From: an uncultured Alsobacter sp.
Lineage (GTDB): Bacteria; Pseudomonadota; Alphaproteobacteria; Rhizobiales; Beijerinckiaceae
NCBI GenBank assembly: GCA_964544365.1
Contig: CAZJCW010000001.1
Span: forward strand, 14,127 to 78,126
DNA: 64,000 nucleotides
Direction of reading: 5' to 3'
In this document: piece by piece, positions 1 through 15,778 of the stretch
How the letters are laid out: the number at the start of each line of letters is the position of its first letter
How positions within the stretch are numbered: the first letter of the stretch is position 1
Translations under genes and position numbers: made by a program
The notes under the pieces: model-generated
Told to the model about the DNA's origin: nothing
Seen by the model: only the letters and a program-made list of their open reading frames with translations
Databases searched by the model: none

Positions 1-235
1 CGAGCCCCAGCGCCGAAGCCAGCGGCCGCGCGGTGTCCATGGTCCGGGCGAAAGGGCTCGAGTAGATGCCGCTGATCGGCTCCAGCCCGAGCCGCGTCGC
101 GACCGCAGCGGCTTCGCGATGTCCGGCTTCGTCCAGCGGCTCATCACTCCAGCCGAGATAGCGCTGGGCATTGCCAGCGGTTCGACCGTGCCGCACAAGA
201 AAAAATCGGGCTGCACGGGTGGGGCCGGCGGTCAC
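1..235 (-). CDS. histidine phosphatase (phosphoglycerate-mutase-like) family protein, 5' part only; gene runs off the left edge
   Basis: The minus-strand frame from GTG 235..233 reads VTAGPTRAARFFLVRHGRTAGNAQRYLGWSDEPLDEAGHREAAAVATRLGLEPISGIYSSPFARTMDTARPLASALGL with no stop to the window edge. It has the RHG catalytic motif of the His-phosphatase fold. The start forms a GTGA overlap with the stop (232..234) of the upstream kinase-like gene. The ORF is absent from the supplied track because it is truncated. Confidence 0.75.
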   Translation of the reverse strand, partial: MTAGPTRAARFFLVRHGRTAGNAQRYLGWSDEPLDEAGHREAAAVATRLGLEPISGIYSSPFARTMDTARPLASALGL

Positions 236-1530
236 TGGCGTGTCCCCGACACGGCTTCCGTCAGCGGCCTGGCAAGCCGGAGAGCTTCGTCCTCCAGACG
301 GATGAAGGCCGGTTCGTCGACCCTGTCCTTCTTCAGCATCAGCGCAAGGTAGTAGATGGACGCGCATGTCCGGTGCCAGGCGAGCCGAAGCGGGTCGAGT
401 GGCGCGAGATGCCTTGCGTAGCTGTCGATATAGACCCCGATCGACGCGCGCCCCTGGGGATCGTCCAGCGCGGCAGAGCCGTCCCCGGAGAATGCCGGAA
501 CATCGTAGCTGAGCGAGGCGAGAAAGATCGCGATGTCACGGTACGGGTCCCCGGCGTGACACAGATCGAAGTCGGTGATCGACCACAGGTCATCGCTCGC
601 GAGCGTCTGCGAGCACACGAGGTCGCCGTGGCAGAACGACGGTTGCGGATCGGAGGGGCGTGTACGATCGAGCAGATCGCCGAGCCCAGCGAGGCGGGCG
701 AAGCTGGCCGGGCGATAGAGTCCAAGCAGGCCGAGGTCGAAGCGGGCCTGTTCCATCCACGTCCGGTTGCCGATCCCGGAGAGACCCTCGACCGGCAATC
801 GGTGCAGATGCGCATGCAATTCGCCCAGCCTTGCAAACGCATCCGTCGACCCGGCTGTGATCGTGTCCGCGACGTCATCGCCCGGCAGGACACTCTGGAA
901 GTAGAGCGACTCGTCCTGATCGAAGGCGAGCGGACGGGAGACCGACAAGGGCAGGCCGGACTTCGCGACGGCATCCGCAACGCGACCGATGAGCGCGTGG
1001 GCCGTTGCGGCACGCGAGCGGCGCTTCAGCTTCGCGATGCAAGGGCCGTGGCGGGGATGGTCGATGGACAGCGTCAGTCGCCGCAGCGGGACATAGCGCA
1101 GGACGCGACCGCGAACCCCGTCCGACGACCAACGGTTCAGAACCGTCTCAACCGAGGTCAGATAGGGATCCGCCGGGAAGCTCAGCCAGTCGATTTGCCC
1201 CGACTTCGCAGACCAGGACAGCGTTTCCGCGGAAAAGCCAAAAGGTCGATCCGGGCGACGGGTCCGCTGGGCGCTCCAGTACGCACGGTCCAGCGTCCAG
1301 CCGCCGGGACCCGCAACGGCCTTCAACTCCGCATGGACAAGAGCGATGGTCGCGCCCGGCTCGAGTCGCGCGGCAATCGCTTCCCGCAAGTCCTGGACGA
1401 CGTCGAAAAAGGGATGGTTCGGTCCGACGAACTCGAAAGGCCGGGCTGCCATGGCGAAAGCGGTACGATCCTGACCCGGTCTGCGGGATCCAAAACAATG
1501 CAACCATAACAGGCGCATCCCTCTTGCCAA
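232..1530 (-). CDS. phosphotransferase family protein (APH/choline-kinase fold), kinase A
   Basis: 432-codon ORF with a TTG start at 1530; in-frame ATGs at 1518 and 1452 are alternative starts. It carries FCHGDLVCSQ (catalytic loop with Gln where the Brenner motif usually has Asn) and ITDFDLCHAGDPYRDIA (DFD metal-binding motif). Confidence 0.8.
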   Translation of the reverse strand: MARGMRLLWLHCFGSRRPGQDRTAFAMAARPFEFVGPNHPFFDVVQDLREAIAARLEPGATIALVHAELKAVAGPGGWTLDRAYWSAQRTRRPDRPFGFSAETLSWSAKSGQIDWLSFPADPYLTSVETVLNRWSSDGVRGRVLRYVPLRRLTLSIDHPRHGPCIAKLKRRSRAATAHALIGRVADAVAKSGLPLSVSRPLAFDQDESLYFQSVLPGDDVADTITAGSTDAFARLGELHAHLHRLPVEGLSGIGNRTWMEQARFDLGLLGLYRPASFARLAGLGDLLDRTRPSDPQPSFCHGDLVCSQTLASDDLWSITDFDLCHAGDPYRDIAIFLASLSYDVPAFSGDGSAALDDPQGRASIGVYIDSYARHLAPLDPLRLAWHRTCASIYYLALMLKKDRVDEPAFIRLEDEALRLARPLTEAVSGTRQ

Positions 1531-1598
1531 GGTCGTGCCCGGCGAGATTGGATGCGCGACGCTCGCGGCGTCACGTCTGCGGGGTTTTCGAAGAGTGC

Positions 1599-2762
1599 AT
1601 GATGCCCGCCCCCCGCGTCGCCCATGTCATCAACAGCATCGGCCTAGGCGGCGTTCCGGAGAGCGTATTTCATCTGCTCCGCACGATGCCTACGGGCGGC
1701 TGCGAGCCCTTGCTGTATGTTCTCCGCGGCCCCGATCCCGCCGACGAGCATCGCGCAGCCCGGCTTGCAAGGTTCACGCAGATCGGCTTGCCGGTGACGC
1801 TGGGTGCACCGGACGACGGGCGGCTGTCCATGATCGCACAGTTGCACGCGTGGTTGACGCGCGAAGCGCCGGATATCCTGCACAGCCACTCCTACAAGCC
1901 CAACCTTCATGCCGGGCTCGCAGCAGGCACCCTGCGGCCCAAGGGACTCAAGGTCATCGCCCACTATCACAACCAATACGACGCCCAGTGGGATCGCGAT
2001 GGCACCCTCGGCTTGAACGCGGCGCTGGCCGTGCAGTGCGATCGCGTCCTTGCATGTTCGAGGACGGTAGGAGACCACGTTCGTGAGCGCCTCGGTGTTC
2101 CGTCCGAGCGCCTGGCCATCATACCCAACGGTGTCGACGACGTGCGTTTCTCGCAGGGTCCTTCGCGGAGCGTGGCGCGGGCAACGATGGGCCTGCCGCA
2201 AGACCGCCCGATCATCGGTCTGGTGGGCCGCATCAGCGAGCAGAAGGGTCACGAGGATCTCTTGCGGGCCGCCGTCGCGATTCGGGCCGCGATCCCAGAC
2301 GTCCTGATCGTCTTCGCCGGAGCTCCCGACGCTCCGGAACGGCTTGCCTCCGTCCAAGCAATGGTCGCCTCGCTCGGCCTCGACGGCGCCGTTCAATTCG
2401 CGGGGTTCGTGGACGAGATTCCGACGTTCTACGCGGCTCTGGACGTGCTCGCGGCGCCCTCGCGATGGGAAGGGTTCGGCCTCATGCTCGTCGAGGCCAT
2501 GACGGCAGGCGTCCCCATCGTCGCGACGGCGGTGGGCGCCATCCCCGAAGTCGTGGGCGATGACGGCGCTGCGCGCCTCGTGGCGCCGGGCGCGATCGAC
2601 GCGCTTTCCGGAGCGCTCATCGACGTCCTGACAGACACGACTTTGGCGCATCGGCTTGCATCGGCAGGCCGGCGGCGTGCCGCCCTCTTCACCTGGGACC
2701 GGTCTGCCGCGCGCCTCGCGGAGATCTACGCCGCCGTGTGCGACGAAGGGGCGGCGTCTTGA
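1599..2762 (+). CDS. glycosyltransferase family 4 (GT-B fold), GT4-a
   Basis: ATG 1599 (or 1602) lies inside ORF 1005..2762. The upstream 198 codons are Arg/Pro/Ser-rich and overlap the divergent gene, so I excluded them. Motifs: GRISEQKGHEDLL and EGFGLMLVEAMTAGVPIVATAVGAIPEVV (E-x7-E). Confidence 0.88.
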   Translation: MMPAPRVAHVINSIGLGGVPESVFHLLRTMPTGGCEPLLYVLRGPDPADEHRAARLARFTQIGLPVTLGAPDDGRLSMIAQLHAWLTREAPDILHSHSYKPNLHAGLAAGTLRPKGLKVIAHYHNQYDAQWDRDGTLGLNAALAVQCDRVLACSRTVGDHVRERLGVPSERLAIIPNGVDDVRFSQGPSRSVARATMGLPQDRPIIGLVGRISEQKGHEDLLRAAVAIRAAIPDVLIVFAGAPDAPERLASVQAMVASLGLDGAVQFAGFVDEIPTFYAALDVLAAPSRWEGFGLMLVEAMTAGVPIVATAVGAIPEVVGDDGAARLVAPGAIDALSGALIDVLTDTTLAHRLASAGRRRAALFTWDRSAARLAEIYAAVCDEGAAS

Positions 2763-4048
2763 ACGTCGACTGGACCTACGACGCGGTTCCGCCACTGGGG
2801 GCGTCGGCGGAGTTTCCGCAAAGAGTCTTCCTCGGTCGGACGGCCTTCGTCGAGGCGGCCCTTGTGGAGGCAGGCCTCATTCCACAGGCGGGCGCATCGC
2901 TGGCATTGGCGAACGTCTGGTACGTTCCTGGGCGCTCTCTCAGCGCGATCTATGAAGGGCAAAGCGAATCCCGGCCACTGCTCGCGACCTTGCACTTCGC
3001 GAGATTTCCGTCCGAGGGCGCCGGGCCGGACGTGACCGGCGGGACCTGGGTTCCGGCTCTCGGCGCCAGTGTCCTGCGGTTCCCGCATGACCCGGGGCTT
3101 CCCGATCTTCCCGTTCTCATCGGGCTTGACGCTTTGCCTCCGCTCGGTGCGACGCCGGCGGCCTCCTGGAGGATGTTGAGCTACCTGCCCGGCGCACGCT
3201 GCACGATTGCCTACGCCGATTCATCGACCCGCATGATCGCGGTCGGGAAGCTGCAGAACGGAGCACCCGCGACCCACCGCCGGATGCAGCAGCTCTGGCA
3301 GTCTTCGGCCCGGGACTTTGCAATGGCCGAGCCGCTGGCGGTGGATGAAGCGCACGCCATCCGGTGGGAGCGCTTCGTACCGGGAGAAAGAGTGGACCGC
3401 ATCATGGACGACTCGCTGCGCGCTGCCGCGACCGCGTCCGCGATGTCGGCGCTGGCGTGTCTCCACGGTCTCCCGCTCGATGGTCTTCCCCTCCGCAACG
3501 GTCGCGTCGTGTTCGAGCGCGCGGCCCGCAAGGTGGCCAAGCGCGTCCGGGTCGCGCTTCCGGAACTGGACCGGTCCGCCACCCTCCTGTGCGAGGACCT
3601 GGCAAGGCGGCTGCCGTCGATGGAAGGGCGCCCGACCGTCACGCTGCACGGCGACTTCCACACGGCGAACATCCTCTTCGACGGCCGGACGCCCGGCTTC
3701 ATCGACCTCGACGAACTCGCGCTCGGGGATCCGGCCTACGATCTGGCCCTGTTTGCCAGCCGTCTCCTTCTCGTCGGCCTGGTGAATCCGGACAGGGCAG
3801 GGCAGGCTGCCGAACTGGCGCAGGCTCTTCCGGCTCTCTATGCGCAGGCCGGCGGCCAGCCCATTCGAGACGACGTGTTCGCGTGGTACGTGGCCACGCT
3901 TCTGCTCGGTCGGCAGGTGAAGACCTGCATCCGCCATTGTGCGCCGGAGTTGGGCAAACTTGGCGCGACCCTGCTGGCGTGGGCGCATGACACCCTGCGC
4001 GCGGGCCGGGTCGACGCCGCGCTGTATTCGACCGGTTCTCCCGCCTAG
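2738..4048 (+). CDS. phosphotransferase family protein (APH fold), kinase B
   Basis: GTG 2738 overlaps the GT4-a stop (2762) by 25 nt. It carries TLHGDFHTANILF (canonical HxDxxxxN) and FIDLDELALGDPAYDLALF. The N-terminal region shares an FP-x-DP-x-L segment with kinase A. Confidence 0.8.
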   Translation: MRRRGGVLNVDWTYDAVPPLGASAEFPQRVFLGRTAFVEAALVEAGLIPQAGASLALANVWYVPGRSLSAIYEGQSESRPLLATLHFARFPSEGAGPDVTGGTWVPALGASVLRFPHDPGLPDLPVLIGLDALPPLGATPAASWRMLSYLPGARCTIAYADSSTRMIAVGKLQNGAPATHRRMQQLWQSSARDFAMAEPLAVDEAHAIRWERFVPGERVDRIMDDSLRAAATASAMSALACLHGLPLDGLPLRNGRVVFERAARKVAKRVRVALPELDRSATLLCEDLARRLPSMEGRPTVTLHGDFHTANILFDGRTPGFIDLDELALGDPAYDLALFASRLLLVGLVNPDRAGQAAELAQALPALYAQAGGQPIRDDVFAWYVATLLLGRQVKTCIRHCAPELGKLGATLLAWAHDTLRAGRVDAALYSTGSPA

Positions 4049-5835
4049 CCCGCTTCCACGGCGTCGATCTGGAAGAGGTTGCAGTAGTAGCCGTTCCGGG
4101 CGACCAGTTCGGCGTGCGTGCCCTGCTCGACGATCTTTCCGTTTCGCAGGACGACGATGAGGTCCGCGTGGCGAACGGACTGGAGGTGATGCGCGATGAG
4201 CACCGTCGTCTTGCCCTCCATCGTCGTCCGCAACGCCGTACGGATCTGAGCTTCGGATTCGGCGTCGATGGCCGACGTCGGTTCGTCCATCAGCAGGATG
4301 TCGGGGTTCTTGATGAGCGCTCGCGCCAGCGACAGGCGCTGCCGCTGGCCGCCCGAGAGGCTCGCCCCGCTCTCGCCGACGATCTCGTCGTAGCCGTCGG
4401 GCAGGCGGGAGATGAAGTCATGCGCTGCGACGGCGCGTGCGGCGGCCTCGATGTCCGCGTCCGTGGCATCCGGCTTTCCGTAGGCGATGTTCTCTCGAAT
4501 GCTCGCACCGAAGAGCAGGGCATCCTGCAGCACGACGCCGATGCGCTGGCGATACGATTCCCTGTTGAGCGTTCGGATGTCGATCCCGTCGACGGTGACC
4601 TGCCCCTCCGTCGGGTCGTAAAGCCGGACGATCAGGTTCGCGAGCGTGGACTTGCCCGCTCCGGACGCTCCGACAAGGGCGATGAAGCGGCCCTGGGGAA
4701 GGGTCAGCGAGAGATCGTCGATCACCGGCTTTCCGGGCTCATACCAGAACGAGACGTTCCTGAATGCGATCTCGCCGCGCAGGGACGCGACGGGCCTGGC
4801 ATCGGGCAGGTCCACCATGTCGGGCTTCGTCTCGAGCAGTTCACGGATCCGGTCGGCGCTGGCGCTGGCCTTCGAGAACCGGGCCGAGAGGCGCGCCATG
4901 ATGCGGACCGGCTTGTACATGTCGACGATGTAGGACGAGAAGACCAGGAGGTCTCCCGGCGACATCCGCCCCCGCATGACCTGGATGCCGCCGAACAGCA
5001 TGACGGTGGCGAGGCCGATGGCGCGCGCAACCTCGACGATCCGCGCCACGGACGCCTCCATCCGCGCCATCCGGATGCTTTCCTCCTTCGACAACGAGCT
5101 CTGAGTCTCGAACCGCGAACTCTCGTACCGCTCGCGCCCGAAGGCCTGCACCAGCGAGACCGCCTTCAGGACCTCCATGAGGCGGGACGTCAGCGCGCTC
5201 TCCCGGTAGCGCTGCTGCCGCGCGGAGACCCGCATGCGCGCCAGCACCAGATAGAGCCCGCCGAACAGGACGGGGAAGGACACGATGACGATGAGCGCCA
5301 GCGTGGAATCGATGATCCACATCACGACGCACATGCCGAGGACCGTCAGCGCATGGGTGGCGAATGCCAGCACGTACTCCGAGTAGACGTCCTTCAGCGT
5401 GTTGGTATCGGCGACGATCTTGTTCATCAGTTCGCCGCTGCGGGAGCGGACATGGAACGAGAGCGAGAGCTGCTGGAGGTGGTTGAAGAGGGCGTTCCTC
5501 AGGCGGAACGTGATCTCGAACCCGATGCGCGATGTCACGTAGATCTGCGCATAGGCGAACGTCGCCGAGAGAAGCGCGAGGACGACGATCGCGCACGCGA
5601 GAAGCGACAGGGCCAGGATGCTTGAGGGCTGCACCCAGGCGAGGTACGTGGCCCAGGCGGCCGGGACTGCCTTGCCGTAGAGCACGTGGTCGAAGATGAG
5701 CTTCAGGGGCCACGGAAGCGCCAGCGCCACCAGCGTCGAGCCGGCCACGCAGAACAGCGCAAGGGCGATCGCGCTGCGCGCTTGCCAGAGGCATCCGAGG
5801 ACGATCTGGCGGAATGTCTGTGCCTGCGTCCGCAT
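4045..5835 (-). CDS. ABC exporter, fused permease/ATPase half-transporter (MsbA/type-I exporter-like)
   Basis: ATG 5835 is preceded by GGAGG. The N-terminal half is hydrophobic. Walker A is GASGAGKST, the signature is LSGGQRQRLSLARAL and Walker B is ILLMDEPTSAID. The track ORF extends to 5958, but the extra 41 codons are Arg-rich and lack an RBS. Confidence 0.9.
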   Translation of the reverse strand: MRTQAQTFRQIVLGCLWQARSAIALALFCVAGSTLVALALPWPLKLIFDHVLYGKAVPAAWATYLAWVQPSSILALSLLACAIVVLALLSATFAYAQIYVTSRIGFEITFRLRNALFNHLQQLSLSFHVRSRSGELMNKIVADTNTLKDVYSEYVLAFATHALTVLGMCVVMWIIDSTLALIVIVSFPVLFGGLYLVLARMRVSARQQRYRESALTSRLMEVLKAVSLVQAFGRERYESSRFETQSSLSKEESIRMARMEASVARIVEVARAIGLATVMLFGGIQVMRGRMSPGDLLVFSSYIVDMYKPVRIMARLSARFSKASASADRIRELLETKPDMVDLPDARPVASLRGEIAFRNVSFWYEPGKPVIDDLSLTLPQGRFIALVGASGAGKSTLANLIVRLYDPTEGQVTVDGIDIRTLNRESYRQRIGVVLQDALLFGASIRENIAYGKPDATDADIEAAARAVAAHDFISRLPDGYDEIVGESGASLSGGQRQRLSLARALIKNPDILLMDEPTSAIDAESEAQIRTALRTTMEGKTTVLIAHHLQSVRHADLIVVLRNGKIVEQGTHAELVARNGYYCNLFQIDAVEAG

Positions 5836-5996
5836 TACCGGTGCCTCCACCCGTCCTTGCCCGTGCTCGTGGCAGCCCGGACCTGACCGCGTGGCGCCCC
5901 GCGCCCGGAAGCGGCGCCGGGCGTGCATTCTTGCGTAGCCGCAAAGAGTGAATTGCAAAAACTCAAAGTTGGCTCCAGCAGGCCTTTTGGCCCAGT

Positions 5997-6062
5997 TCGT
6001 CAGCGTCCTGTCAGCTTTGCGTCAGCGTCGCGTCAGCTTGGCGTCAGCGTGGCGTCACTTTC
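5997..6062. repeat. six contiguous 11-bp tandem repeats, consensus GCGTCAGCnnn
   Basis: Read directly: tcgtcagcgtc / ctgtcagcttt / gcgtcagcgtc / gcgtcagcttg / gcgtcagcgtg / gcgtcactttc. The GTCAGC cores start at 5999, 6010, 6021, 6032 and 6043, plus GTCAC at 6054. The spacing is exactly 11 bp, about one helical turn. The array lies in the divergent intergenic region between the exporter and the GT-kinase fusion operon. Confidence 0.9.
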
Positions 6063-6064
6063 GT

Positions 6065-6084
6065 TGTGACAGTTTCGTGTCACA
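6065..6084. promoter_or_regulatory. perfect 7-bp inverted repeat TGTGACA-N6-TGTCACA (candidate operator)
   Basis: tgtgaca (6065..6071), gtttcg, tgtcaca (6078..6084). It lies 2 bp downstream of the 11-bp repeat array, and its right end is 45 bp upstream of the ATG at 6130. Confidence 0.6.
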
Positions 6085-6129
6085 GCCGGCCCGGACGATG
6101 TTTGAACGGGCGACTGAGGGGCGAATACC

Positions 6130-8052
6130 ATGAATACGGGCTCTGTAACAGAATCGATATTGATTAAATTCTGTGTAACCGGTCGATCTGGACTGGGCCA
6201 TATTCGTCGTACCTGTAACATTGCATCGGCACTGATGCGTGAGAACTGCCACATCCGGTGCGTTCTCCTGACGAATGCACCGATTGCCGGCCTCTCTGCG
6301 CAGGAACGCGATCTGTTCGAGAGCATCGACGTCGTGGCCAAGTCCCAGATGGCGCAGCGACTTGCCGCGATGGAACCCGGGCCGGTCGTCGTGGATACTG
6401 CGGTCGTTCCCCGGCTTGCACTGCTTGCCGATCCGCTGTGCCTCGTCCTGCGCGAGACCATCGAGGATCGGCTGTCCTCGTTTCGCCTGGAGGCCGGGCG
6501 GCCCTGGGATCTGGTCGTTGTGCCGTCGTCGCGCTCGCACTGGCACCCCGATCCCGGGACGATCGGCGCGCGCGAGGTTTCACACGTCAACTGGATCTAC
6601 CGCACGGCCGAGACGGATCGCGGCGGTTCGGTCCTGCCGCCCCGCTCTCGCCCCCGCGTGCTCGTCGCTACCGGCGGCGGCGGGTCGCCGCAGACGGCCG
6701 CGGCCCTTCGCGTCGCGATCGACGATGTCCTTTCGCGCCTTCCCGGTGACGGCAGCCACGAGGTGGTCCAGGTCGCCGGCCCGCGACTGGCGCCCGAAGG
6801 CTTCCTGCAGCGCGCCGATGCGCGGATCGATGTCGGCGCCCGGCTCAACGAGGCTTTCGCCGAGGCCGACGTCGTCATCTCCACCGTCGGGTACAACTCC
6901 ATTCTCGAGCTTGCCGACCACGACACGCCGGCTCTCCTGGTGCCGATCGAGCGCACCTTCGACGACCAGACGGGGCGGGCCGAGGCGTGGGGGCCCCTTC
7001 TCGGCCTGGCGCATCGGGCCGACGATGCGGCACGCAGCAGCGAGTGGATCGCCGGCGTGCTGTCCGGGAGAAGCCGGCGCGCACGGGTGGAACTGGGACC
7101 CAGCGGCGCAAGCGAGGCGGCGGCGTTGATCCTCGGGCTCGTGCGCGAGCGGGCGGGCTGGTCCTTCGACAAGGTGATGAAGGACAGCGATCGGCCGACA
7201 CCTTCATCCGCGGCACGTCGTGCGACGTTTCTCTTCATGCAAGGCGTTGCGACGCCCTGCGCCCGCGATGGTCTCGTCCCCGACGCGATCACGATGCCAC
7301 GCCTTGGGACGTCGTCGCTTCGGGATCGTCTTCGGGCCCTCGGGGGACCGTTCCTGAGCGGCCCGGCGCTTGGAAGGGCGGTCTGCGACGTCCTTCTCGT
7401 CTCGGAGGACAGGCCGAACCTGCTGGCCACGTTTCATGCCGTGGCGTCGGTCCCGGAAGACGTGGCCGATTTCGATGCCCTCGCGAAGGTGCGGTCCCGC
7501 CTGGCTCCTGGCCATGCCGCACACCGGCTCGGATCGGCCAGTGTGCGCCGGGCAGCGATCCTGGCGGACGCGATCGAACAGGCCCTTGGCGGAGTCGCCG
7601 CGGACCGGAGCCGCCGCGTCCTGCTGCATGGCGACCTGCATGCCGGCCAGATCCTGGCGGACGGAGCGGGCGCACCCGTCGTCATCGATCTCGACGATCT
7701 TGCGATGGGCGCCGCTGAAGCCGACATCGCCAATCTCGGCGCCCATCTCGTGACAAGCGTCGATCTGTACGACGGCCCTGTCGCACCCGGGTTTCTCGCC
7801 GTCGTGGACGCGCTCTCGGGTGTCGCGGTCGGCGAGCCACTCTCGCCGGCGCGCCTCGCCGCCTATGGCGCAGCCGCCCTGCTTCGCCGGGCGCTGAAGA
7901 TCGTGGAGCGGGACGGCGACGTCGACCGCTGCATCGCGATCATCGATGCCTCCGAGACCCTTCTGCGCCGGGCCCTCGCGATGCCGAGGACCGCACCTTC
8001 GCCGTACGACGCTTCCGAGCGTGCGGCATCCCCCGTCTCCATCAACCCGTGA
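6130..8052 (+). CDS. fusion protein: N-terminal GT28-like (COG4671-type) glycosyltransferase domain + C-terminal APH-fold kinase domain (kinase C)
   Basis: 640 codons; ATG 6130 has GAGGGG about 9 nt upstream. The N-terminal part (about 6130..7150) is paralogous to the next gene: GRSGLGHIRRTCNIA vs TVGLGHVRRNSTIA, VLVATGGGG vs VVVTAGGG, ADVVISTVGYNSILE vs ADLVVTMGGYNSMLE. The C-terminal part (about 7160..8049) carries LLHGDLHAGQILA and VVIDLDDLAMGAAEADIANL. Confidence 0.82.
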   Translation: MNTGSVTESILIKFCVTGRSGLGHIRRTCNIASALMRENCHIRCVLLTNAPIAGLSAQERDLFESIDVVAKSQMAQRLAAMEPGPVVVDTAVVPRLALLADPLCLVLRETIEDRLSSFRLEAGRPWDLVVVPSSRSHWHPDPGTIGAREVSHVNWIYRTAETDRGGSVLPPRSRPRVLVATGGGGSPQTAAALRVAIDDVLSRLPGDGSHEVVQVAGPRLAPEGFLQRADARIDVGARLNEAFAEADVVISTVGYNSILELADHDTPALLVPIERTFDDQTGRAEAWGPLLGLAHRADDAARSSEWIAGVLSGRSRRARVELGPSGASEAAALILGLVRERAGWSFDKVMKDSDRPTPSSAARRATFLFMQGVATPCARDGLVPDAITMPRLGTSSLRDRLRALGGPFLSGPALGRAVCDVLLVSEDRPNLLATFHAVASVPEDVADFDALAKVRSRLAPGHAAHRLGSASVRRAAILADAIEQALGGVAADRSRRVLLHGDLHAGQILADGAGAPVVIDLDDLAMGAAEADIANLGAHLVTSVDLYDGPVAPGFLAVVDALSGVAVGEPLSPARLAAYGAAALLRRALKIVERDGDVDRCIAIIDASETLLRRALAMPRTAPSPYDASERAASPVSINP

Positions 8053-9317
8053 CGAGACCCATGTCCAACCGATCCATCGTGATGTACTCGCCGGACACCG
8101 TCGGTCTCGGCCACGTCCGCCGGAATTCAACGATCGCGACCCATGTCGTCGAGATGAACCCGGACTGCAGCGTCGTGCTGCTGGTGGGTAGCGCCGCCGG
8201 TCCCGTCTTCGCGTTGCCGCCCGGCGTGGACACCATCAAGCTGCCTTCCGTCCAGAAGCTCAGCAGCGGCGACTGGTGCGCGCGCAGCCTGTCGATCTCC
8301 AACCAGGTTGCCCAGCGTGTCCGGTCCGGCCTGATCCGCGAAACCATCGCGACCCTTCGCCCCGACATTCTTCTGGTCGATCATCTGCCCTGCGGCATAT
8401 GGAGCGAACTGCTGCCCGTCTTCGAGTTCATCCGGAGCCGGCGCCTGCCGACGCGGATCGTGCTCGGCCTGCGGGACATCCTGGACGATCCGCAGCGCGT
8501 GTCTTCCCGCTGGAGCCGGGAAGGGACGTACGACGTCGTCCGGCGGTACTACGACAGCGTGTTCGTCTATGGCGATCGCGCCGTGTTCGACTCCGCGGCG
8601 GCCTATGGTCTGAGCGAGGAAATCTGCAGCGACGTTCGCTTCATGGGCTACGTCACCGGTGAGACGAATTCTTCGCCGGCAGCCAGCGGCCGGCAATCCG
8701 GCGGCCGTGACGAGAAGTTCGTCGTGGTCACCGCCGGCGGGGGTTACGACGCCTACCCGATGATGGCTGCGTCACTCGAGGCGCTGTCCGTCGTGCCAAG
8801 GTCGCAGCGCATCAGGGCTGTCGCCGTCGCGGGCCCGCTGATGCCGGACGAATACTTCGCTCGCCTCAGGGCAATGGCCGACGCTTCCGGCATCGAGCTC
8901 GTCCGGTTCACGTCGGAGCTCAAGACGATGCTGCGGCGCGCCGACCTCGTCGTGACGATGGGCGGATACAACTCGATGCTCGAGATCACCGCACTCGGCA
9001 AGGCGACGATCGTCATACCGCGCTCCGGACCGAGCATGGAGCAGACCGTTCGCTCGCAGATGTTCGAGCAGATGGGCTTCTCCCGGCACGTCCCGCTCGA
9101 GGCGGCCACGCCCGAGTTCCTGTCGCAGGCAATCGTCGCCGGACTCGCATCGCCGCCGCGCCCCTATGCGACCTTGGGCCTCGACGGTGCCCGCAACGCA
9201 GCCGCGGCACTGGTCGGAAAGCTCGCGCAGGCCTCTGGCCGGCGCTCGCAACTCCGCGCCTCGCGTTCGCGGCTGGTGCGGTCCGGCAGGGTGGAGAGCG
9301 TCCATGCTCATCCCTGA
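8049..9317 (+). CDS. GT28-like (COG4671-type) predicted glycosyltransferase
   Basis: GTG 8049 forms a GTGA overlap with the upstream stop; ATG 8061 is an alternative start. Motifs: IVMYSPDTVGLGHVRRNSTIA, VVTAGGGYDAYP, ADLVVTMGGYNSMLEITALGKATIVIPR. Confidence 0.8.
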   Translation: MTRPMSNRSIVMYSPDTVGLGHVRRNSTIATHVVEMNPDCSVVLLVGSAAGPVFALPPGVDTIKLPSVQKLSSGDWCARSLSISNQVAQRVRSGLIRETIATLRPDILLVDHLPCGIWSELLPVFEFIRSRRLPTRIVLGLRDILDDPQRVSSRWSREGTYDVVRRYYDSVFVYGDRAVFDSAAAYGLSEEICSDVRFMGYVTGETNSSPAASGRQSGGRDEKFVVVTAGGGYDAYPMMAASLEALSVVPRSQRIRAVAVAGPLMPDEYFARLRAMADASGIELVRFTSELKTMLRRADLVVTMGGYNSMLEITALGKATIVIPRSGPSMEQTVRSQMFEQMGFSRHVPLEAATPEFLSQAIVAGLASPPRPYATLGLDGARNAAAALVGKLAQASGRRSQLRASRSRLVRSGRVESVHAHP

Positions 9318-10560
9318 CAGGGCCGGAAAAGTCGGCGCAGGACTTCGGGTCGGCTATGTCCTGAAGCGGTTTCCGCGCCTGAGCCAGACCTTCGTGCTTG
9401 CGGAGATTCTCGAACTCGAGCGCCGCGGTGTCGAGGTGCGCGTGGCGTCGCTCCTGCCGCCCCTCGATGACGCGGACAAGGTCGACACCCGTGCCCTGCG
9501 CGCGAAAGTGGACGTCCTGCCAGACGGCTACGCCGTGTGGCCGAACGAAGACGGGCTTGAAGGCCTCGTTGCCGGAAAGACGGAGCGCGCGCGGGAACGG
9601 ATCGCCCATTGGTCGGCCGCACTGGCAGAGCTCTGGGGCTCCGAGGGAATCGACTGCCTGCACGCCCATTTCGGATCCGACGCGACCACCGTCGCGCTTC
9701 TGGCCGGACGCAGGATCGCGCGGCCCGTGTCGTTCACGGCGCATGCCCGCGACATCTTCAAGCACTACGCAACCGAGGACGAGGACCGGCTCGCACGCCG
9801 CTCGAAGATGGCGCTGGCCGATGCCGTCGTCACCGTGTCCGACTTCAACAAGTCCTATCTCGCCGCGATGGCCGGGCCGTCCTCGGCCGGGAAGATCGAA
9901 CGCATCTACAACGGGATCGATCTTGCCGCGATCAGACCGGGCCCCGCCGCAAAGCGGGAACAGGGCCTGATCTTGGCCGTCGGCCGCCTCATCGAGAAGA
10001 AGGGCTTCGGCGATCTCATCGCTGCTTGCGCCGTCCTCCGCTCGGGCGGTGTCGATTTCCGCTGCGAGATCGTCGGCGAGGGCCCGCTGCGCGAAAGCCT
10101 GGAGGCGCAGGTGCGTGCCTGCGGGCTCGAGGACGACGTTTCGTTCGTCGGCGCTGTTCCGCCCGCCGAAGTCTTGCGCCACATGCGGCGAGCGAGCGTC
10201 TTTGCCCTGCCCTGCGTCGTGGCCGCCGACGGCGATCGGGACGGCTTGCCGACCGTGCTTCTCGAGGCGCTGGCGAGTGGGCTTCCCGCGGTCACGACCC
10301 GGGTGGCTGGAACGCCCGAAATCATCACCGACGGGATCACCGGCCGGATCGTCGATCCAGCCGATCCCGCTCGGCTAGCCGAGGCTCTCGCGAGCCTTCT
10401 GATGCAACCGGATCTTGCCGGACGCTGCGGTCACCAGGGCCGCGCCAAGGCCGAGCGTGATTTCGACATCACCACCAATGTGGGTGCTCTTCATGACCTC
10501 TTCACCCGATACACCAGCCAGTTCGATCGCCGAGCTTCGGCAGCGCTTGCGGCAGAGTGA
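9304..10560 (+). CDS. glycosyltransferase family 4, GT4-b
   Basis: ATG 9304 lies inside ORF 9166..10560 and overlaps the upstream stop (9317) by 14 nt. Motifs: RVGYVLKRFPRLSQTFVLAEILELERRG, GRLIEKKGFGDLI, DGLPTVLLEALASGLPAVTTRVAGTPEIITDGITG (E-x7-E). Confidence 0.88.
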   Translation: MLIPDRAGKVGAGLRVGYVLKRFPRLSQTFVLAEILELERRGVEVRVASLLPPLDDADKVDTRALRAKVDVLPDGYAVWPNEDGLEGLVAGKTERARERIAHWSAALAELWGSEGIDCLHAHFGSDATTVALLAGRRIARPVSFTAHARDIFKHYATEDEDRLARRSKMALADAVVTVSDFNKSYLAAMAGPSSAGKIERIYNGIDLAAIRPGPAAKREQGLILAVGRLIEKKGFGDLIAACAVLRSGGVDFRCEIVGEGPLRESLEAQVRACGLEDDVSFVGAVPPAEVLRHMRRASVFALPCVVAADGDRDGLPTVLLEALASGLPAVTTRVAGTPEIITDGITGRIVDPADPARLAEALASLLMQPDLAGRCGHQGRAKAERDFDITTNVGALHDLFTRYTSQFDRRASAALAAE

Positions 10561-10570
10561 GGCGCAACCC

Positions 10571-12067
10571 GTGAGCACGCGACGCAAGGGTCCACTGACT
10601 GTCGTCATGGTCGTTTCGCTCGGCCTTGCCGGCGGGTGGGGTGTCTTCGCGATGTCAGGCCATCGCCTCTCGGCCAGCCCCGCCTTGGCGTCGGGCCCGG
10701 AGGGAGGCGGCATGTCCGCCTTCGAGACGGCCTCGGTGACACGTGGCATCGTTCGTCGTCGCATCCAGACGGCAGGGCCCATCAAGCCGGTCGTGACCGC
10801 GCAGGTCGGATCCCAGCTCTCAGGGCAGGTCCGCGAGATCCGGGCAGACTTCAACACGGTCGTACAGGCCGGCGACGTTCTCGCGGTGCTCGACGCGAAG
10901 ACCTTCGCCGCCCGCATCGACCAGGCCATGGCCGAACTCGACATGGCGAAGGCCGCGCTGACGAACCAGACCGCCAACCACGACAAGTCGGTCGCAAACC
11001 TCCGCGTCGCCGAGCGCAACAGCCAGCGCCTCAAGGATCTCAACTCGCGAGGCGTCGGCTCGGAGGCGCAACTCGACTCCGCGCAGCGGGATGTCGAGGT
11101 CGCGCGCGCCGAGATGATCGTGTCGAAGGCGCAGGTCGACAGCGCCCGCGCCAATGTCGTGCAGCGCCAGGCCGCCTTGTCGCAGATGACGATCGATCTG
11201 GAACGGACAGAGATCCGCGCGCCGATCGCAGGCATCGTGATTTCACGTTCCGTCGAGATCGGGCAGACCGTGGCGGCCAGCCTGTCGGCTCCCGAACTCT
11301 TCCGCATCGCCCAGGATCTGCGTCAGGTTCGCATCGATGCGCAGGTGAACGAAGCCGACATCGGCGGCGTCTCCGTCGGCAACCCGGCGACGTTTCGCGT
11401 CGATGCCCACCCCGGGCGCACCTTCTCCGGAACAGTGTCCCAGGTGAGGCTTGCCGCGACGGAAGAAAACAACGTCGTCACCTATACCGTCGTGATCGAA
11501 GCCGAGAACCCGGACCTCAAGTTGTATCCCGGCATGACGGCGACGGTGGAGATCGAGACCGCCCGGCGTCAGGACGTGCTCCGGCTCCCGGCCGAGGCAC
11601 TGCGCTTCCGCCCGAGGCAGGTGACACCGGCCATGACGGCCGGCGACAAGTCGGAGCGTCGCGAAGTGCAGCTCGAGCGTCTCGCGAAGAAGCTCTCCCT
11701 GACGCCGCAGCAGCTGGCTGCCGCGAAGGAGCGTCTCACTGCGATGGAACAGGCCAAGACCAAGTCGGCGGGCGCCGAAGGGGAAGCCAAGGCCAAGCGC
11801 GTCGGTTCGACCGATAGGCTGGCGATGGTGGTCGAGCCGCTGCTGAACGAACAGCAGCGCACCCTCTTGTCCGCGTGGCGCGAAGAACGCGAGGACACGA
11901 ACGCGACCGCGGTTTGGGTCGTCGGAAACGACGGTGTTCCGATCCGGCGCCCGATCAGGATCGGCCTGGTCGACGGCACCCACGCCGAACTGATCGGCAC
12001 GCCGATCACCGAGGACGAGAAGGTGATCGTCAGGGCGAGGACGCGGACCCCGAAGGATCGGCCATGA
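10571..12067 (+). CDS. HlyD-family membrane-fusion (periplasmic adaptor) protein, MacA/DevB-like, with an internal insertion
   Basis: GTG 10571 lies 10 nt after the GT4-b stop; the start is uncertain because the ORF opens at 10415. There is an N-terminal TM anchor (LTVVMVVSLGLAGGWGVFAM), a lipoyl-like segment (GQVREIRADFNTVVQAGDVLAVLD), a long coiled coil and TEIRAPIAGIV. A Lys/Glu/Gln-rich insertion of about 93 codons lies at 11621..11899. Confidence 0.85.
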   Translation: MSTRRKGPLTVVMVVSLGLAGGWGVFAMSGHRLSASPALASGPEGGGMSAFETASVTRGIVRRRIQTAGPIKPVVTAQVGSQLSGQVREIRADFNTVVQAGDVLAVLDAKTFAARIDQAMAELDMAKAALTNQTANHDKSVANLRVAERNSQRLKDLNSRGVGSEAQLDSAQRDVEVARAEMIVSKAQVDSARANVVQRQAALSQMTIDLERTEIRAPIAGIVISRSVEIGQTVAASLSAPELFRIAQDLRQVRIDAQVNEADIGGVSVGNPATFRVDAHPGRTFSGTVSQVRLAATEENNVVTYTVVIEAENPDLKLYPGMTATVEIETARRQDVLRLPAEALRFRPRQVTPAMTAGDKSERREVQLERLAKKLSLTPQQLAAAKERLTAMEQAKTKSAGAEGEAKAKRVGSTDRLAMVVEPLLNEQQRTLLSAWREEREDTNATAVWVVGNDGVPIRRPIRIGLVDGTHAELIGTPITEDEKVIVRARTRTPKDRP

Positions 12068-12804
12068 ACGCCCATGTCCGAACGCAGACGGCACTCGTCG
12101 AAGCGCGCGACCTGGTGAAGTCCTACACCGTAGGCACTCACACGATCGAGGCCCTGAGAGGCGTCACCCTGTCCATCGGCGCCGGTGATTTCGTCGCGAT
12201 CATGGGGACATCGGGGTCGGGCAAGTCGACCCTGATGAATCTCGTCGGGACGCTGGACCGCCCCTCCGGTGGCGTCCTGATGATCGGGGGGCACGAGGTG
12301 TCCCGTCTTGACGACGACGGCCTCGCGGGCGTTCGAAACCGCCTCATCGGGTTCGTGTTCCAGCACTTCAATCTGTTGCCCCGCACGTCGGCCCTCGAGC
12401 AGGTCATGCTGCCGCTGCGCTATCGCCGCGTCCCGGCCAGGCAGGCGGAGGCAGAAGCGCGCGCGAGACTGGCTCAGGTCGGTCTGGGAGACCGCACGGA
12501 CCACCGACCGCAGCAATTGTCGGGTGGCCAGCAGCAGCGCGTCGCCATCGCCCGCGCACTGGTCGGCGACCCACTCCTCCTGCTGGCCGACGAGCCCACG
12601 GGCGCGCTCGATTCGCGGACATCCGCCGAGATCATGAAACTTCTCGTCGATCTCAACGACCAGGGCGTCACGATCGTCCTCGTGACCCACGATCCCACGG
12701 TGGCGACCTACGCGAAGCGCTGCATCACCATGCGTGACGGAGCCATCGTCGAGGATCGCGCCGTATCGCGCCGAGAACTGGAGACGAGTCATGCGGTTGG
12801 CTGA
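12064..12804 (+). CDS. ABC transporter ATP-binding protein (MacB/LolD/DevA-type)
   Basis: ATGA overlap with the adaptor stop. Walker A is GTSGSGKSTL, the signature is LSGGQQQRVAIARAL and Walker B is [12 protein letters not shown]. Confidence 0.93.
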   Translation: MNAHVRTQTALVEARDLVKSYTVGTHTIEALRGVTLSIGAGDFVAIMGTSGSGKSTLMNLVGTLDRPSGGVLMIGGHEVSRLDDDGLAGVRNRLIGFVFQHFNLLPRTSALEQVMLPLRYRRVPARQAEAEARARLAQVGLGDRTDHRPQQLSGGQQQRVAIARALVGDPLLLLADEPTGALDSRTSAEIMKLLVDLNDQGVTIVLVTHDPTVATYAKRCITMRDGAIVEDRAVSRRELETSHAVG

Positions 12805-14023
12805 CCTCTTTCTCGTGGCCTTGGCAGCCCTGCGGGCAAATCTTCTGCGCAGTCTCCTCACCACGCTCGGCATCATCATCGGCGTTGCCTCGGTCATCGT
12901 GATGGTGGCCGTGGGCGAGGGCGCACGCAGCGAGGTCGAGCGGCAGATCGCCAGCCTCGGCACCAACATCCTTCAGGTTCAGCCGGGATCGAGCCGGGTG
13001 CGTGGCCGTTGGGCGGGAAGCGGGACGCGGCTGCCTTTCTCCGAGCAGGATCTCCAGGCGATCCGCTCAGGCGTCCCCGCGGTCGCCGCCATCTCCGGTG
13101 TCCTGACCAACGTGGCGCCGATCGTGAACGGGCCGACGAACTGGCTGAGCAGCATCGAAGGCGTGAGCGACGACTACCTGAATGTCAGGACGTGGGATCT
13201 CGCCGGCGGTCGCTTCTTCGGCGCTGACGAGGAGGCGGCCGGCGCGCGGATCGCCGTCATCGGCCAGACCGTCGCGACCCAGCTCTTCGGCGACACGGAT
13301 CCGATCGGAGCCGAAGTCCGCATCATGAATGTGCCGTTCGAGATCGTCGGCGTGCTCGAGCGGAAGGGCCAGTCGACGTCCGGAAAGGACCTCGACGATG
13401 TGGTTCTCGTCCCCGCTTCGACGGCCCGCTCGAAGATGTCGAAGCCCAACAAGAACGTCCCGCGTCAGGTGGGCAACCTGGTCATCAAGGTCACCGAAGG
13501 CGAGGCGCTCGACGAAGCGAAGGCCGAGATCGAGGATGTCCTGCGCAAGCGCCGGAGAAGTCAGGCCAACGGCGAGGACGACTTCTTCGTTCGGGACCTC
13601 GCGGACTACAACCGGACGCGTACGGCAACGCAGCAGACTTTGGGTCTTCTGCTCGGTGCAACGGCCCTGATCTCGCTTCTCGTCGGCGGCATCGGCATCA
13701 TGAACATCATGCTTGTGTCCGTGTCGGAGAGGACGAAGGAGATCGGACTGCGGATGGCCGTCGGCGCGCGGCGGGGAGACATCCTGCGGCAATTCCTCAC
13801 GGAATCCGTGGTGTTATGCCTCATGGGGGGATTTGCCGGCGTGATTGCCGGGGTGGGTGCCACCATCCTGTCGGCCACGGTCGCCGGCTGGCCCGTGCTG
13901 ATCAGCCCGGCCATCGTCGCAACGGCCCTCGCAGCCGCCGCTGCAACAGGATTGCTGTTCGGCTTCCTGCCCGCCCGGCGTGCAGCAGGCATGAGTCCCA
14001 TCGACGCCCTGCGGGCCGACTGA
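12791..14023 (+). CDS. ABC transporter permease, FtsX/MacB type with periplasmic domain
   Basis: ATG 12791 overlaps the ATPase stop by 14 nt. N-terminal TM (RSLLTTLGIIIGVASVIVMVAVG), then a periplasmic domain of about 220 aa, then the FtsX module GGIGIMNIMLVSVSERTKEIGLRMAVGARRGDILRQFL. Confidence 0.9.
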   Translation: MRLADLFLVALAALRANLLRSLLTTLGIIIGVASVIVMVAVGEGARSEVERQIASLGTNILQVQPGSSRVRGRWAGSGTRLPFSEQDLQAIRSGVPAVAAISGVLTNVAPIVNGPTNWLSSIEGVSDDYLNVRTWDLAGGRFFGADEEAAGARIAVIGQTVATQLFGDTDPIGAEVRIMNVPFEIVGVLERKGQSTSGKDLDDVVLVPASTARSKMSKPNKNVPRQVGNLVIKVTEGEALDEAKAEIEDVLRKRRRSQANGEDDFFVRDLADYNRTRTATQQTLGLLLGATALISLLVGGIGIMNIMLVSVSERTKEIGLRMAVGARRGDILRQFLTESVVLCLMGGFAGVIAGVGATILSATVAGWPVLISPAIVATALAAAAATGLLFGFLPARRAAGMSPIDALRAD

Positions 14024-14077: not shown

Positions 14078-15778
14078 TCAGTTGAGACCTGGCTCGTTTG
14101 CAGCAGCGGTGAGGATCCGCACGATCGAGGCGAGGGCATGGGTATGAACGTAGTTCGGCCCATTGTCCGGAGCTGCCTTGGCGATCGCGAGCCAGGCTTC
14201 AGTGGTGGTGAGATCGACGTCGCTACCCATGATCGCGTTGCCCGCGCTCTGCGCGACGGGAAACAGGGCTGCAACCAGCCGCAGAGGTGCTCTGCCGAGA
14301 ATCTGGGGCCAGGCAGGATCGGAAACGACCGCGCGGAACGCCGCCAGTTCCTCCGGCGTGCAAGAACCGGTCAGATGGCCGTAGCGGAGCCATAGGGCCG
14401 CTGTGTCGCCCCGTGCCTCCACCTCGTAGCGCGTCGAAAGATCGAAGAGCAACCTTGCCGTCGCGCTCTTGTCCGGTTGGGCCGTCATGGTGCGCGAGTG
14501 AAACAGCATGTGATGGATGGCCTGGGTGGCCGACCGCAGCTCTGGCGTCAGTTTTGAACTCCGATGCGACGTCTCGCTTGCGAAGCGGCTGAACAGAGCC
14601 GCAGGAACAATGAGCGCAGGATCCGCATCGGAGAGGACGGCAGACGGAGAGGCTGCAGCCATCATCAAGGGTGCTGGCGCTTCGGCGGGCGGCATCACCG
14701 CAATCGCCACGAGGCAGGTGGCGATCATGCCGGACGATGCAATCTGCCAGCGTACCGGGCGGATTCCCTGAAGAGCCGGAACGTCGCCCCTGAGGGCCAG
14801 GATCAAGGCGATGCAGATGATCGGGATGTGCCCCATGAGTTCGGCAACGCCGAACAGCAATCCTGTCAGAATGAACAGGACTGTCAGGGCAGAGCCGACG
14901 ATCCGCGTGCCCATGCCGAGGATCAGAAGGGTTCCGAAGGCAATCTCGGCGAGCCCTGCGCCGAACACGAAGTGAAGATGCGAGAACTCCGACAGTCCGA
15001 GAAGTCTCGGAAAGTTGACGATGGGGTAGGTCTGAACGAACGCAAGAGAGACCTCGGGCTCGAGGATCTTGTCGTGAAGAGCCAGAACCACGAGTTGAAT
15101 GCCGAGGCCGCTTCTCAGGATGAACACGGCCAGCGCATCATCCGCTTGCCATGATGGCTCGCTGGAGCGGGACCATCCCGTCCACCAGCGGCCCTTCGCG
15201 TTGGTGGCGGAAGCCGTGAGATGCGGGCCGATCACGATGAGAGCACCGGCAATCGCCAGGATCTCGAATGCGTAGTCGATCATCTCGACGATGGAGAACA
15301 GGGCGAAACTCGCGACCGACATCACGATCAGCAGGATACTGGCTGATCGTATCCTTGACTGGACGACGAGCATCGCTCCGAGGATCGCTTGGGCAAGCAG
15401 CGCTCCCTGTGCGGCGATCGATGTTCCGGCGGTCAGATTGGGTGCAATCATGACATGCTCGAGACTGCTGATCACGAGCGTCAATCCGAACAGGATTGCA
15501 AGGATGCGCCATTCGAAGAGGCTTGGATTCAATGCGGGACGCGTCAGGAATTGCTGCAGCTTCGGGACCCGGCTGCTCAGCAGCGACATGAGCGCGACGC
15601 CGGCGACGAACATCACGGCAGCCACGAGCATCAGCGTATGCATGACATCCCACTGCAAGACAGGCTTTTGCAGCGGGATCTTGGGATCGAGGAACCAGCG
15701 GGCATGAGCCGACGCGGAGGCGGGCGCCATGGCGAAGGCCACGGTCGCAAAGAACCGGGTAAAGCGAGACGACGCCAT
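14078..15778 (-). CDS. large polytopic membrane protein of unknown function (DoxX-like hydrophobic core plus a C-terminal soluble domain of about 200 aa)
   Basis: The ORF runs 14078..15838. The preferred start is ATG 15778, which gives a signal-peptide-like N-terminus (MASSRFTRFFATVAFAMAPASASAHA). Ten or more hydrophobic segments follow (e.g. GAGLAEIAFGTLLILGMGTRIVGSALTVLFILTGLLFG), then a non-hydrophobic tail with no motif I recognise. Confidence 0.6.
   Translation of the reverse strand: MASSRFTRFFATVAFAMAPASASAHARWFLDPKIPLQKPVLQWDVMHTLMLVAAVMFVAGVALMSLLSSRVPKLQQFLTRPALNPSLFEWRILAILFGLTLVISSLEHVMIAPNLTAGTSIAAQGALLAQAILGAMLVVQSRIRSASILLIVMSVASFALFSIVEMIDYAFEILAIAGALIVIGPHLTASATNAKGRWWTGWSRSSEPSWQADDALAVFILRSGLGIQLVVLALHDKILEPEVSLAFVQTYPIVNFPRLLGLSEFSHLHFVFGAGLAEIAFGTLLILGMGTRIVGSALTVLFILTGLLFGVAELMGHIPIICIALILALRGDVPALQGIRPVRWQIASSGMIATCLVAIAVMPPAEAPAPLMMAAASPSAVLSDADPALIVPAALFSRFASETSHRSSKLTPELRSATQAIHHMLFHSRTMTAQPDKSATARLLFDLSTRYEVEARGDTAALWLRYGHLTGSCTPEELAAFRAVVSDPAWPQILGRAPLRLVAALFPVAQSAGNAIMGSDVDLTTTEAWLAIAKAAPDNGPNYVHTHALASIVRILTAAANEPGLN

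Follow-up and report, generated by a model that had tools for sequence, protein, structure and literature searches.

A glycosyltransferase-kinase fusion protein from Alsobacter and its putative glycan export operon

The GlgE alpha-glucan pathway includes TreS-Mak (Pep2), in which an N-terminal carbohydrate-active enzyme is followed by a C-terminal sugar kinase of the APH fold, and both fused and split forms of this pair exist in nature. For the O9a O-antigen of Escherichia coli (WbdD/WbdA), the kinase of a multidomain protein phosphorylates a sugar of a cytoplasmic glycan that is made by GT4 enzymes and exported by an ATP-binding cassette (ABC) transporter. The CotSA and CotS genes of the Bacillus subtilis spore coat, encoding a GT4 glycosyltransferase and an APH-like kinase, are co-transcribed and have been implicated in a surface glycan layer. 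Here, we describe a gene at positions 6130..8052 (forward strand) of a 64,000-nucleotide stretch of DNA from an uncultured Alsobacter sp. (contig CAZJCW010000001.1; the window, hereafter), which encodes a GT-B glycosyltransferase (GT) and an APH-fold kinase in a single protein of 640 amino acids (aa). The fusion is an ordinary Rosetta-stone event that is already present, uncharacterized, in the databases; the operon in which it lies is the more interesting object.

The gene is one uninterrupted frame of 640 codons that starts with ATG and is preceded by a Shine-Dalgarno-like motif, GAGGGG. The window has a composition of about 68% GC (range 62-71%) and long open reading frames (ORFs) arise by chance on all six frames, so that ORF length alone does not prove the gene. 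It is genuine because 19 full-length homologs (567-648 aa, 86-97% query coverage, 38-71% identity) were found in a search of 5.8 billion proteins. The GC content of third codon positions (GC3) is high in a single frame between about 6250 and 7990, with no change of frame across 7100-7200, where the initial annotation had considered a missed stop codon or frameshift. An AlphaFold 2 (AF2) model of the full-length protein, built on 18 family members, has a mean predicted local distance difference test score (pLDDT) of 86.6 and a predicted template modeling score (pTM) of 0.85. In this model, the last GT helix (aa 327-339) is followed by about five residues and then by the first kinase strand (aa 345-349), which bears K348. 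With one 640-aa ORF and two Pfam domains above their cut-offs, the earlier reading of the gene as a single polypeptide joining a GT to a kinase is borne out.

A sequencing or assembly artefact that merged two genes could give the same appearance, given that most relatives (numbered with an L below) carry two genes with a 4-nt overlap, at which one lost base would mimic a fusion, and that L009 and L032 look frameshifted; we nevertheless reject it as almost certainly wrong, since one continuous ORF is seen in ten independent assemblies from different projects at 37-71% identity, the fused sequences form a clade across which the GT-kinase junction aligns without gaps, and the GC3 frame is unbroken over that junction.

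Two features of the 5' end were noted in passing. The first 120 nt or so of the gene (6130-6250) have a GC3 of 0.42-0.60, compared with 0.75-0.90 for the remainder, and the orthologous 5' end in L001 also has AT-rich codon choice, which may play a role in translation initiation. Separately, the database proteins P0002 and P0003 (603 aa) are annotated with too late a start, which leaves about 37 residues, among them the putative catalytic His, out of the annotation. At the P0002 locus (L001, 9891-10003), the ORF extends further upstream, to an ATG at 9891, and the added stretch codes for the conserved N-terminus with its GLGHIRR motif; for P0003, the late start is deduced only from the truncation that it shares with P0002 in the alignment.

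The GT half (aa 1-342; 6130..7155, forward strand) had been described as GT28-like, a label that holds in part. It matches the Pfam family Glyco_tran_28_C at aa 184-280 with 26.3 bits against a cut-off of 22, but Pfam gives no match to the N-terminal GT28 domain at E <= 1 anywhere in the fusion protein, and the nearest structures are of GT1 type. In a Foldseek search of the PDB, the top matches are the GT-B enzymes YjiC, OleI (2iya) and GtfD, with E of about 1e-8, identities of 14-18% and a TM-score over the GT of about 0.5-0.6. MurG was matched weakly in a profile search of PDB sequences; the murG model TIGR01133 scores 21.7 against a cut-off of 250, and with no N-terminal GT28 domain detected either, identity as a MurG ortholog was rejected.

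All 58 loci that were compared, fused and split, keep G21, G23, H24 and R27 (the GLGHxRR motif), D89, R108, G182-G184, G254-S257 (GYNS), E260, R275, D278 and Q280, and G185 is kept in 57 of them. By analogy with GT1 and MurG enzymes, H24 would stand at the position of the general base, and the GGGG loop and E260 at the diphosphate- and ribose-binding positions, which argues for a nucleoside diphosphate (NDP)-sugar donor. The fold, H24, G182-G184 and E260 together agree with an inverting, NDP-sugar-dependent GT-B enzyme of GT1-like type, if these residues have the roles of their counterparts. The protein thus shares with the GT1 and GT28 enzymes (OleD/OleI, YjiC, GtfD and MurG) the GT-B fold, a glycine-rich N-terminal loop ending in His at the GT1 base position, and the phosphate- and ribose-binding motifs of the C-terminal domain; it differs from them in its low identity and structural similarity, in the undetected N-terminal GT28 domain, and in that neither MurG nor macrolide-GT models come near their cut-offs.

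The kinase half (aa 343-640; 7156..8049, forward strand) matches Pfam APH (PF01636) at aa 431-541 with 36.2 bits, above the gathering cut-off of 23.2, and carries the two motifs from which a kinase had been predicted, LLHGDLHAGQ (aa 498-507) and IDLDD (aa 519-523). A kinase-only AF2 model of the C-terminal 303 residues has a pLDDT of 86.2 and a pTM of 0.86. Foldseek aligned it end to end with 3dxq, APH(4)-Ia, LicA, 3csv, maltokinase and TvaE (8jsu), with E from 5e-8 to 1e-5 (280-315 columns and TM of 0.5-0.6 for the first five); its matches include choline/ethanolamine kinase. The half therefore has the bilobal protein-kinase-like fold, and its Pfam score and its structural matches to small-molecule kinases leave the predicted identity standing. 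The solved proteins closest to it by sequence profile are 3csv, glucosamine kinase 6hwj, methylthioribose kinase and maltokinase. Across the sequence and structure searches, it also matches APH(4), APH(9), Mph and amicoumacin kinase.

Thirteen kinase residues are invariant in 59 of 59 loci: R457, H500, G501, D502, H504, Q507, D520, D523, D532, N535, R586, R587 and K590, which include the core of both motifs; K348 is kept in 57 of the 59. The HxDxxxxN motif, the metal-binding Asp and the ATP-binding Lys can all be placed by alignment. The Asn position of the motif is occupied by Q507 in every locus, as in glucosamine kinase 6hwj, with which the kinase half has the HGDxHxGQ variant of the catalytic loop in common. 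By analogy, K348, D502, Q507 and D520 would make up the ATP-Mg and catalytic set. The half is only about 298 aa long and its conserved Lys lies about six residues into the domain, so that the N-lobe is unusually short. Identity as a resistance gene was considered and rejected, as the NCBIfam resistance equivalogs all score far below their cut-offs on the fusion protein (17.6 against 325 for APH(6) and 13.4 against 680 for APH(9)-Ia) and tblastn found no plasmid copies. The NCBIfam GlcN_kinase model scores 14.8 against a cut-off of 550, and no maltokinase model reaches its cut-off either.

We scanned one genome per GTDB species, with representatives of 185,579 species, which gave 59 loci, and ran separate hidden Markov models for the GT and kinase halves on six-frame ORFs of the related loci. 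Only the window and nine non-redundant loci (L001-L005, L007 and L011-L013; 37-71% identity) have the two halves in a single ORF; in 48 of 58 loci, a GT of about 335 aa and a kinase of about 240-290 aa are encoded by separate adjacent genes. Relative to the GT gene, the kinase gene is in frame +2, the offset needed for a 4-nt overlap, in 43 of 49 split cases, and the projected start of the kinase profile falls at most about 60 nt from the GT stop in 42 of the 49. Such stop/start overlaps were read directly in L015 (GTGA) and L064 (ATGA). A hand count of the best 150 matches among 1.84 billion representative proteins gave about 20 fused, 40 GT-only and 65 kinase-only relatives.

Fused and split forms are orthologous. 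The fused sequences make up one clade in a neighbor-joining tree of the GT half, which indicates one fusion event, and the simplest history would be that a lineage of Alphaproteobacteria underwent a single indel at the stop/start overlap. The initial annotation had proposed a duplication followed by domain accretion. The GT duplication is much older than the fusion, since 56 of 62 loci, split ones among them, have both GT paralogs. The accretion was a fusion of two pre-existing adjacent operon genes. That no characterized enzyme has this architecture also stands, in that none was found, but the architecture itself, although rare, is already in public databases, where the fused proteins go by names such as ‘phosphotransferase’ or ‘hypothetical protein’.

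The system is accessory and patchily distributed. Its carriers belong to the Hyphomicrobiales and, in many cases, to the Rhodobacterales/Paracoccaceae (cultured examples being Silicimonas algicola, Albidovulum litorale, Tabrizicola sp. and Tropicibacter alexandrii), many of them marine Rhodobacterales. Other alphaproteobacterial carriers are the cultured Pelagibius litoralis and Denitrobaculum tricleocarpae and one Rhodospirillales metagenome-assembled genome, and further ones belong to the Arenicellales, Ectothiorhodospiraceae, Methylothermaceae, Burkholderiaceae and Candidatus Entotheonella.

Several loci deviate from these arrangements. The halves lie in overlapping ORFs in L009 (9284-11178) and L032 (9911-12029), in or beside the fused clade, with overlaps of 180 and 325 nt; overlaps of this size suggest frameshift errors or pseudogenes. 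L004 (13600-21500, on the same contig as L010) has many fragmented genes downstream, as is typical of an uncorrected long-read assembly. In P0046, a 1549-aa called protein from the representative search, the GT-kinase region is continuous with an Alginate_exp (AlgE-like) outer-membrane barrel. The join is probably an artefact of gene calling or read-through, and it places an AlgE-like porin gene once again directly beside the GT-kinase pair. Finally, about 1.2 kb separates the GT and kinase genes of L033 (10978-12092, Pelagibius litoralis), unlike in all other split loci.

Downstream of the fusion gene on the same strand lies its stand-alone GT28-like paralog (8049..9317), whose GTG at 8049 overlaps the stop of the fusion gene; the database protein, of 418 aa, starts from an ATG at 8061. 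The paralogy noticed at first sight was recovered by BLASTP, which aligns aa 21-343 of the fusion with aa 19-397 of the paralog (26% identity, E 1e-12), bringing the GLGH[IV]RR, GGGG/AGGG and GYNS[IM]LE segments into register. A receiver (REC) domain is present on the paralog in 39 of 56 related loci. These REC-bearing paralogs, of about 525 aa with the receiver at the N-terminus, are annotated as ‘response regulator’ (e.g. L015 6653-8410 and L064 10001-11578), occur in most split-form clusters and usually adjoin an NtrC-type sigma54 activator and a histidine kinase. Judged by its domains, such a protein would be a receiver with a glycosyltransferase output, and we know of no characterized protein of this kind. 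The fused clade, including the window, has lost the receiver domain.

The pair is part of a tightly packed cluster that occupies positions 1..14023 of the window. From its left edge, which cuts it, a His_Phos_1 phosphatase gene (2..235, reverse strand; start placed by analogy with L001) is followed by a long APH-family kinase, A (232..1530, reverse strand; longest ORF 432 aa), a GT4 glycosyltransferase, A (1515..2762, forward strand; start approximate), a second long APH-family kinase, B (2738..4048, forward strand; 436 aa), and an MsbA/HepA-like ABC exporter with a transmembrane domain (TMD) fused to a nucleotide-binding domain (NBD) (4045..5958, reverse strand), which is divergent from the fusion gene. 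Beyond the paralog lie GT4 glycosyltransferase B (9166..10560, forward strand, as its longest ORF; its true start is probably near 9300) and genes for a MacA-like adaptor, a MacB-like ATPase and a MacB-like permease (10415..14023, forward strand), which are found only in the closest relatives of the fused clade. Both long kinases were recognized through Pfam and have only weak generic APH matches among solved structures. The affinities of the ABC exporter are with MsbA-related proteins, HepA and glucan exporters (424 bits with the MsbA model, cut-off 602; 447 with the MsbA-related model, cut-off 780), and the MacB-like ATPase resembles the darobactin exporter DarD. Pfam domains beyond 14 kb are unrelated to the cluster. 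Directly after it, a 586-aa ORF (14078-15838, reverse strand) has no significant Pfam or PADLOC match and one weak DoxX match; it lies in a stretch of lower GC (0.615, compared with about 0.67) and is without a counterpart in the related loci, so that a lineage-specific membrane protein or an insertion is possible.

Synteny of the cluster is kept in relatives at 71%, 47% and 42% identity. In its operon, the pair has as partners the paralogous GT, two GT4 enzymes, one to three longer APH kinases and the MsbA/HepA-like ABC exporter. Counted across 62 loci, the GT28-like paralog recurs in 56, GT4 enzymes in 52, and the ABC exporter and long APH kinases in 45 each. Split-form clusters add an NtrC-type sigma54 activator, usually with a histidine kinase, in 42 loci and an AlgE-like outer-membrane porin in ten. 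The fused clade has no sigma54 activator, paralog receiver or AlgE-like porin and instead has, in part, MacAB (5 of the 62 loci), His_Phos_1 and a heparinase II/III-like protein. A defense or conflict system, hinted at by weak TCAD9 and GT4-conflict matches, was rejected, as PADLOC gave no match to its defense models for seven cluster proteins and the Pfam scores of these matches fell short of threshold (for TCAD9, 16.8 against a cut-off of 40).

The interval at 5959-6129, between the ABC exporter and the fusion gene, is the only gap from the exporter to the last pump gene, and it is filled by promoter repeats. Six (C/T)GTCA(G/C) motifs are spaced there with exact 11-bp phasing (5998..6085). 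The array amounts to five overlapping pattern matches, compared with 0.23 expected, and occurs nowhere else in the window. It is kept in the orthologous promoters of L001 (9760-9850) and L002 (9868-9935), whose proteins have 71% and 47% identity, and is not obvious in the L003 promoter. Read by eye, elements of the form GTGACAG...TGTCACAG follow the array, although a repeat finder reported none. The array resembles the Pho box, with its 11-bp repeats of CTGTCAT plus 4 nt, and from these motifs it is possible that phosphate limitation, or another regulator of the OmpR/PhoB type, controls the divergent promoter.

Measured against the described systems, the fusion protein can be assigned only to two broad superfamilies, APH and GT-B, and not to TreS-Mak, WbdD or the lipopolysaccharide (LPS) core systems. 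It has the domain order of TreS-Mak, and the mycobacterial maltokinase matches the profile of the GT-kinase family. However, TreS is not a GT-B transferase but a GH13 isomerase, Mak carries an additional cap domain at its N-terminus where the kinase half is minimal, and the operon in the window has exporters, additional GTs and kinases, and no GlgE or GlgB. WbdD likewise has a kinase-fold domain in a multidomain protein that works with GT4 enzymes and ABC transporter export, but the fusion partners of its kinase are a methyltransferase and a coiled coil instead of a GT, and export is by Wzm/Wzt (ABC-2) rather than by a fused TMD-NBD protein of the MsbA/HepA type (ABC_membrane plus ABC_tran). 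No methyltransferase or ABC-2 genes were found in the window cluster, which is accordingly not of the WbdD type.

The LPS inner core pathway (the GT4 enzyme WaaG, the kinases WaaP, WaaY and WapP, and MsbA) combines GT4 enzymes, several protein-kinase-like sugar kinases and an MsbA-type flippase, as does our cluster. The kinases here match Pfam APH instead, and there is no model for 3-deoxy-D-manno-oct-2-ulosonic acid (Kdo) or the WaaP family among the listed matches; the cluster lacks heptosyltransferase and Kdo genes, the exporter scores below all curated cut-offs, and the distribution is that of an accessory system. CotSA-CotS, as generally described, resembles the locus in pairing the gene for a GT-B glycosyltransferase with that for an APH-fold kinase, and differs in its Gram-positive spore context, its GT4 partner and the absence of a fusion and of an exporter.

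On balance we consider it probable, if only narrowly so, that the protein is bifunctional, transferring a sugar from an NDP-sugar and phosphorylating, with ATP, one and the same cytoplasmic glycan or glycolipid intermediate, and that further steps by the other GTs and kinases lead to a multiply phosphorylated product that is then exported. Two adjacent, translationally coupled genes would have lost their stop/start boundary to give a bifunctional cytoplasmic enzyme. Its GT half would hold the NDP-sugar with the GGGG loop and GYNSxxE, use H24 of GLGH as general base in the manner of GT1 enzymes, and add one sugar to a growing oligosaccharide or glycolipid. Just before or after this transfer, the kinase half would phosphorylate a hydroxyl of the same intermediate, with K348, D502, Q507 and D520 acting together with ATP-Mg and the invariant basic patch of R586, R587 and K590 holding the anionic substrate. 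The remaining GTs and kinases of the cluster would complete a multiply phosphorylated glycan and the ABC exporter would carry it across the inner membrane. It might then leave through the MacAB-type pump in the clade of the window and through the AlgE-like porin in some split-form relatives. The fusion would fix a 1:1 ratio of the two activities and keep both active sites close.

Several considerations weigh against this proposal. The short N-lobe means that the kinase half may work differently from standard APH enzymes. The six gene-called loci contain no priming phosphoglycosyltransferase, Wzx/Wzy, synthase or nucleotide-sugar genes, so that nothing in them points to the acceptor or to a lipid anchor. 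The order of the two reactions, and the notion that both act on the same molecule, are pure inference. Lastly, we found no literature describing a product, substrate or phenotype for any family member. Full-text literature searches for GT plus APH fusions, COG4671 and REC-GT28 gave no relevant description; a paper on Rhodobacter CenKR mentions an unrelated putative APH gene.

The kinase might instead supply a substrate. It would make a sugar phosphate, for instance an anomeric sugar-1-phosphate as do maltokinase, NahK and AmgK, and the fused GT would use this product as acceptor or donor, much as TreS-Mak feeds GlgE or as GlgM uses glucose-1-phosphate, with the finished glycan left undecorated by the kinase. 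The nearest sequences (3csv and the glucosamine, methylthioribose and maltose kinases) and the HGDxHxGQ loop common to glucosamine kinase point this way, as do the precedent of TreS-Mak, which fuses a carbohydrate-active enzyme to a kinase of the same fold, and the absence of nucleotidyltransferase and nucleotide-sugar genes from the clusters. We nevertheless judge it unlikely, because the invariant E260 of GYNSxxE and the GGGG loop would, by analogy, bind the ribose and diphosphate of an NDP-sugar and so speak against a sugar-1-phosphate donor, the up to three further kinases of a cluster fit decoration better, and the GlcN_kinase model is far from its cut-off.

Still less probable is that the protein inactivates xenobiotics or antibiotics, glycosylating like Mgt and OleD and phosphorylating like Mph and APH, in concert with efflux pumps. 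The structures closest to the GT half are indeed macrolide and natural-product GT1 enzymes, the kinase half does match APH(4), APH(9), Mph and amicoumacin kinase, and a MacAB-like pump lies in the window cluster. Against this, all resistance equivalog models score far below their cut-offs; these include Mgt, which scores 22.6 against 700 for the paralog only, no macrolide-GT model being listed for the fusion. MacAB is confined to the 5 loci and plasmid copies were not found, and the gene neighborhood of the pair looks biosynthetic: the linkage is always to a paralogous GT, an MsbA-like exporter and two GT4 enzymes, and an AlgE-like porin and a sigma54 regulator are often there too.

We also rejected, as highly improbable, a cluster for a ribosomally synthesized and post-translationally modified peptide exported by ABC and MacB-type transporters, in which the APH-like kinase (as in the LxmK and TvaE systems) and the GT would tailor the peptide: although TvaE is among the structural matches, long kinase A has a weak LxmK match of 29 bits and the MacB ATPase resembles DarD, the LxmK cut-off is 315, the six gene-called loci contain no precursor peptide, HopA1-type lyase, cyclase or protease, the sole gap, occupied by the promoter repeats, leaves no room for a precursor gene, and four GTs are many for a peptide.

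The proposal of a doubly active enzyme can be extended to the whole operon, although all parts of the extension together are a tentative reading that we hold rather doubtful. The pair would be the signature of an undescribed, horizontally spread envelope-glycan pathway, with at least 58 species-level loci in Alpha-, Beta- and Gammaproteobacteria and Candidatus Entotheonella. This pathway might make a multiply phosphorylated oligosaccharide or glycolipid with no known priming enzyme in the cluster, export it by an MsbA-like flippase and an AlgE-like porin or MacAB pump, and be switched on by the receiver-controlled glycosyltransferase and the sigma54 regulator. The reduced N-lobe of the kinase might also depend on the GT partner, a dependence that would explain the constant coupling of the two genes and why their fusion is possible.

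On its own, the fusion overturns nothing that is known about GT-B or APH enzyme families. It gives a clue to function and is not an enzyme of a new kind. Its value is that of a Rosetta-stone link, which indicates that a minimal APH-type kinase works together, most likely in a complex, with a short GT that is widespread but unannotated. The databases currently label these proteins ‘phosphotransferase’, ‘hypothetical protein’ or ‘streptomycin 6-kinase’, and the paralog ‘predicted glycosyltransferase’ or ‘response regulator’, and resistome surveys should not read such APH matches as antibiotic-resistance genes. Through this link, GT and kinase are connected with a defined set of 7 to 10 operon genes for an exported glycan, which we could not match to any described system, and the cluster probably builds and exports a phosphorylated glycan. 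The operon offers a testable entry into a surface or secreted glycoconjugate pathway of many marine Rhodobacterales and other Proteobacteria.

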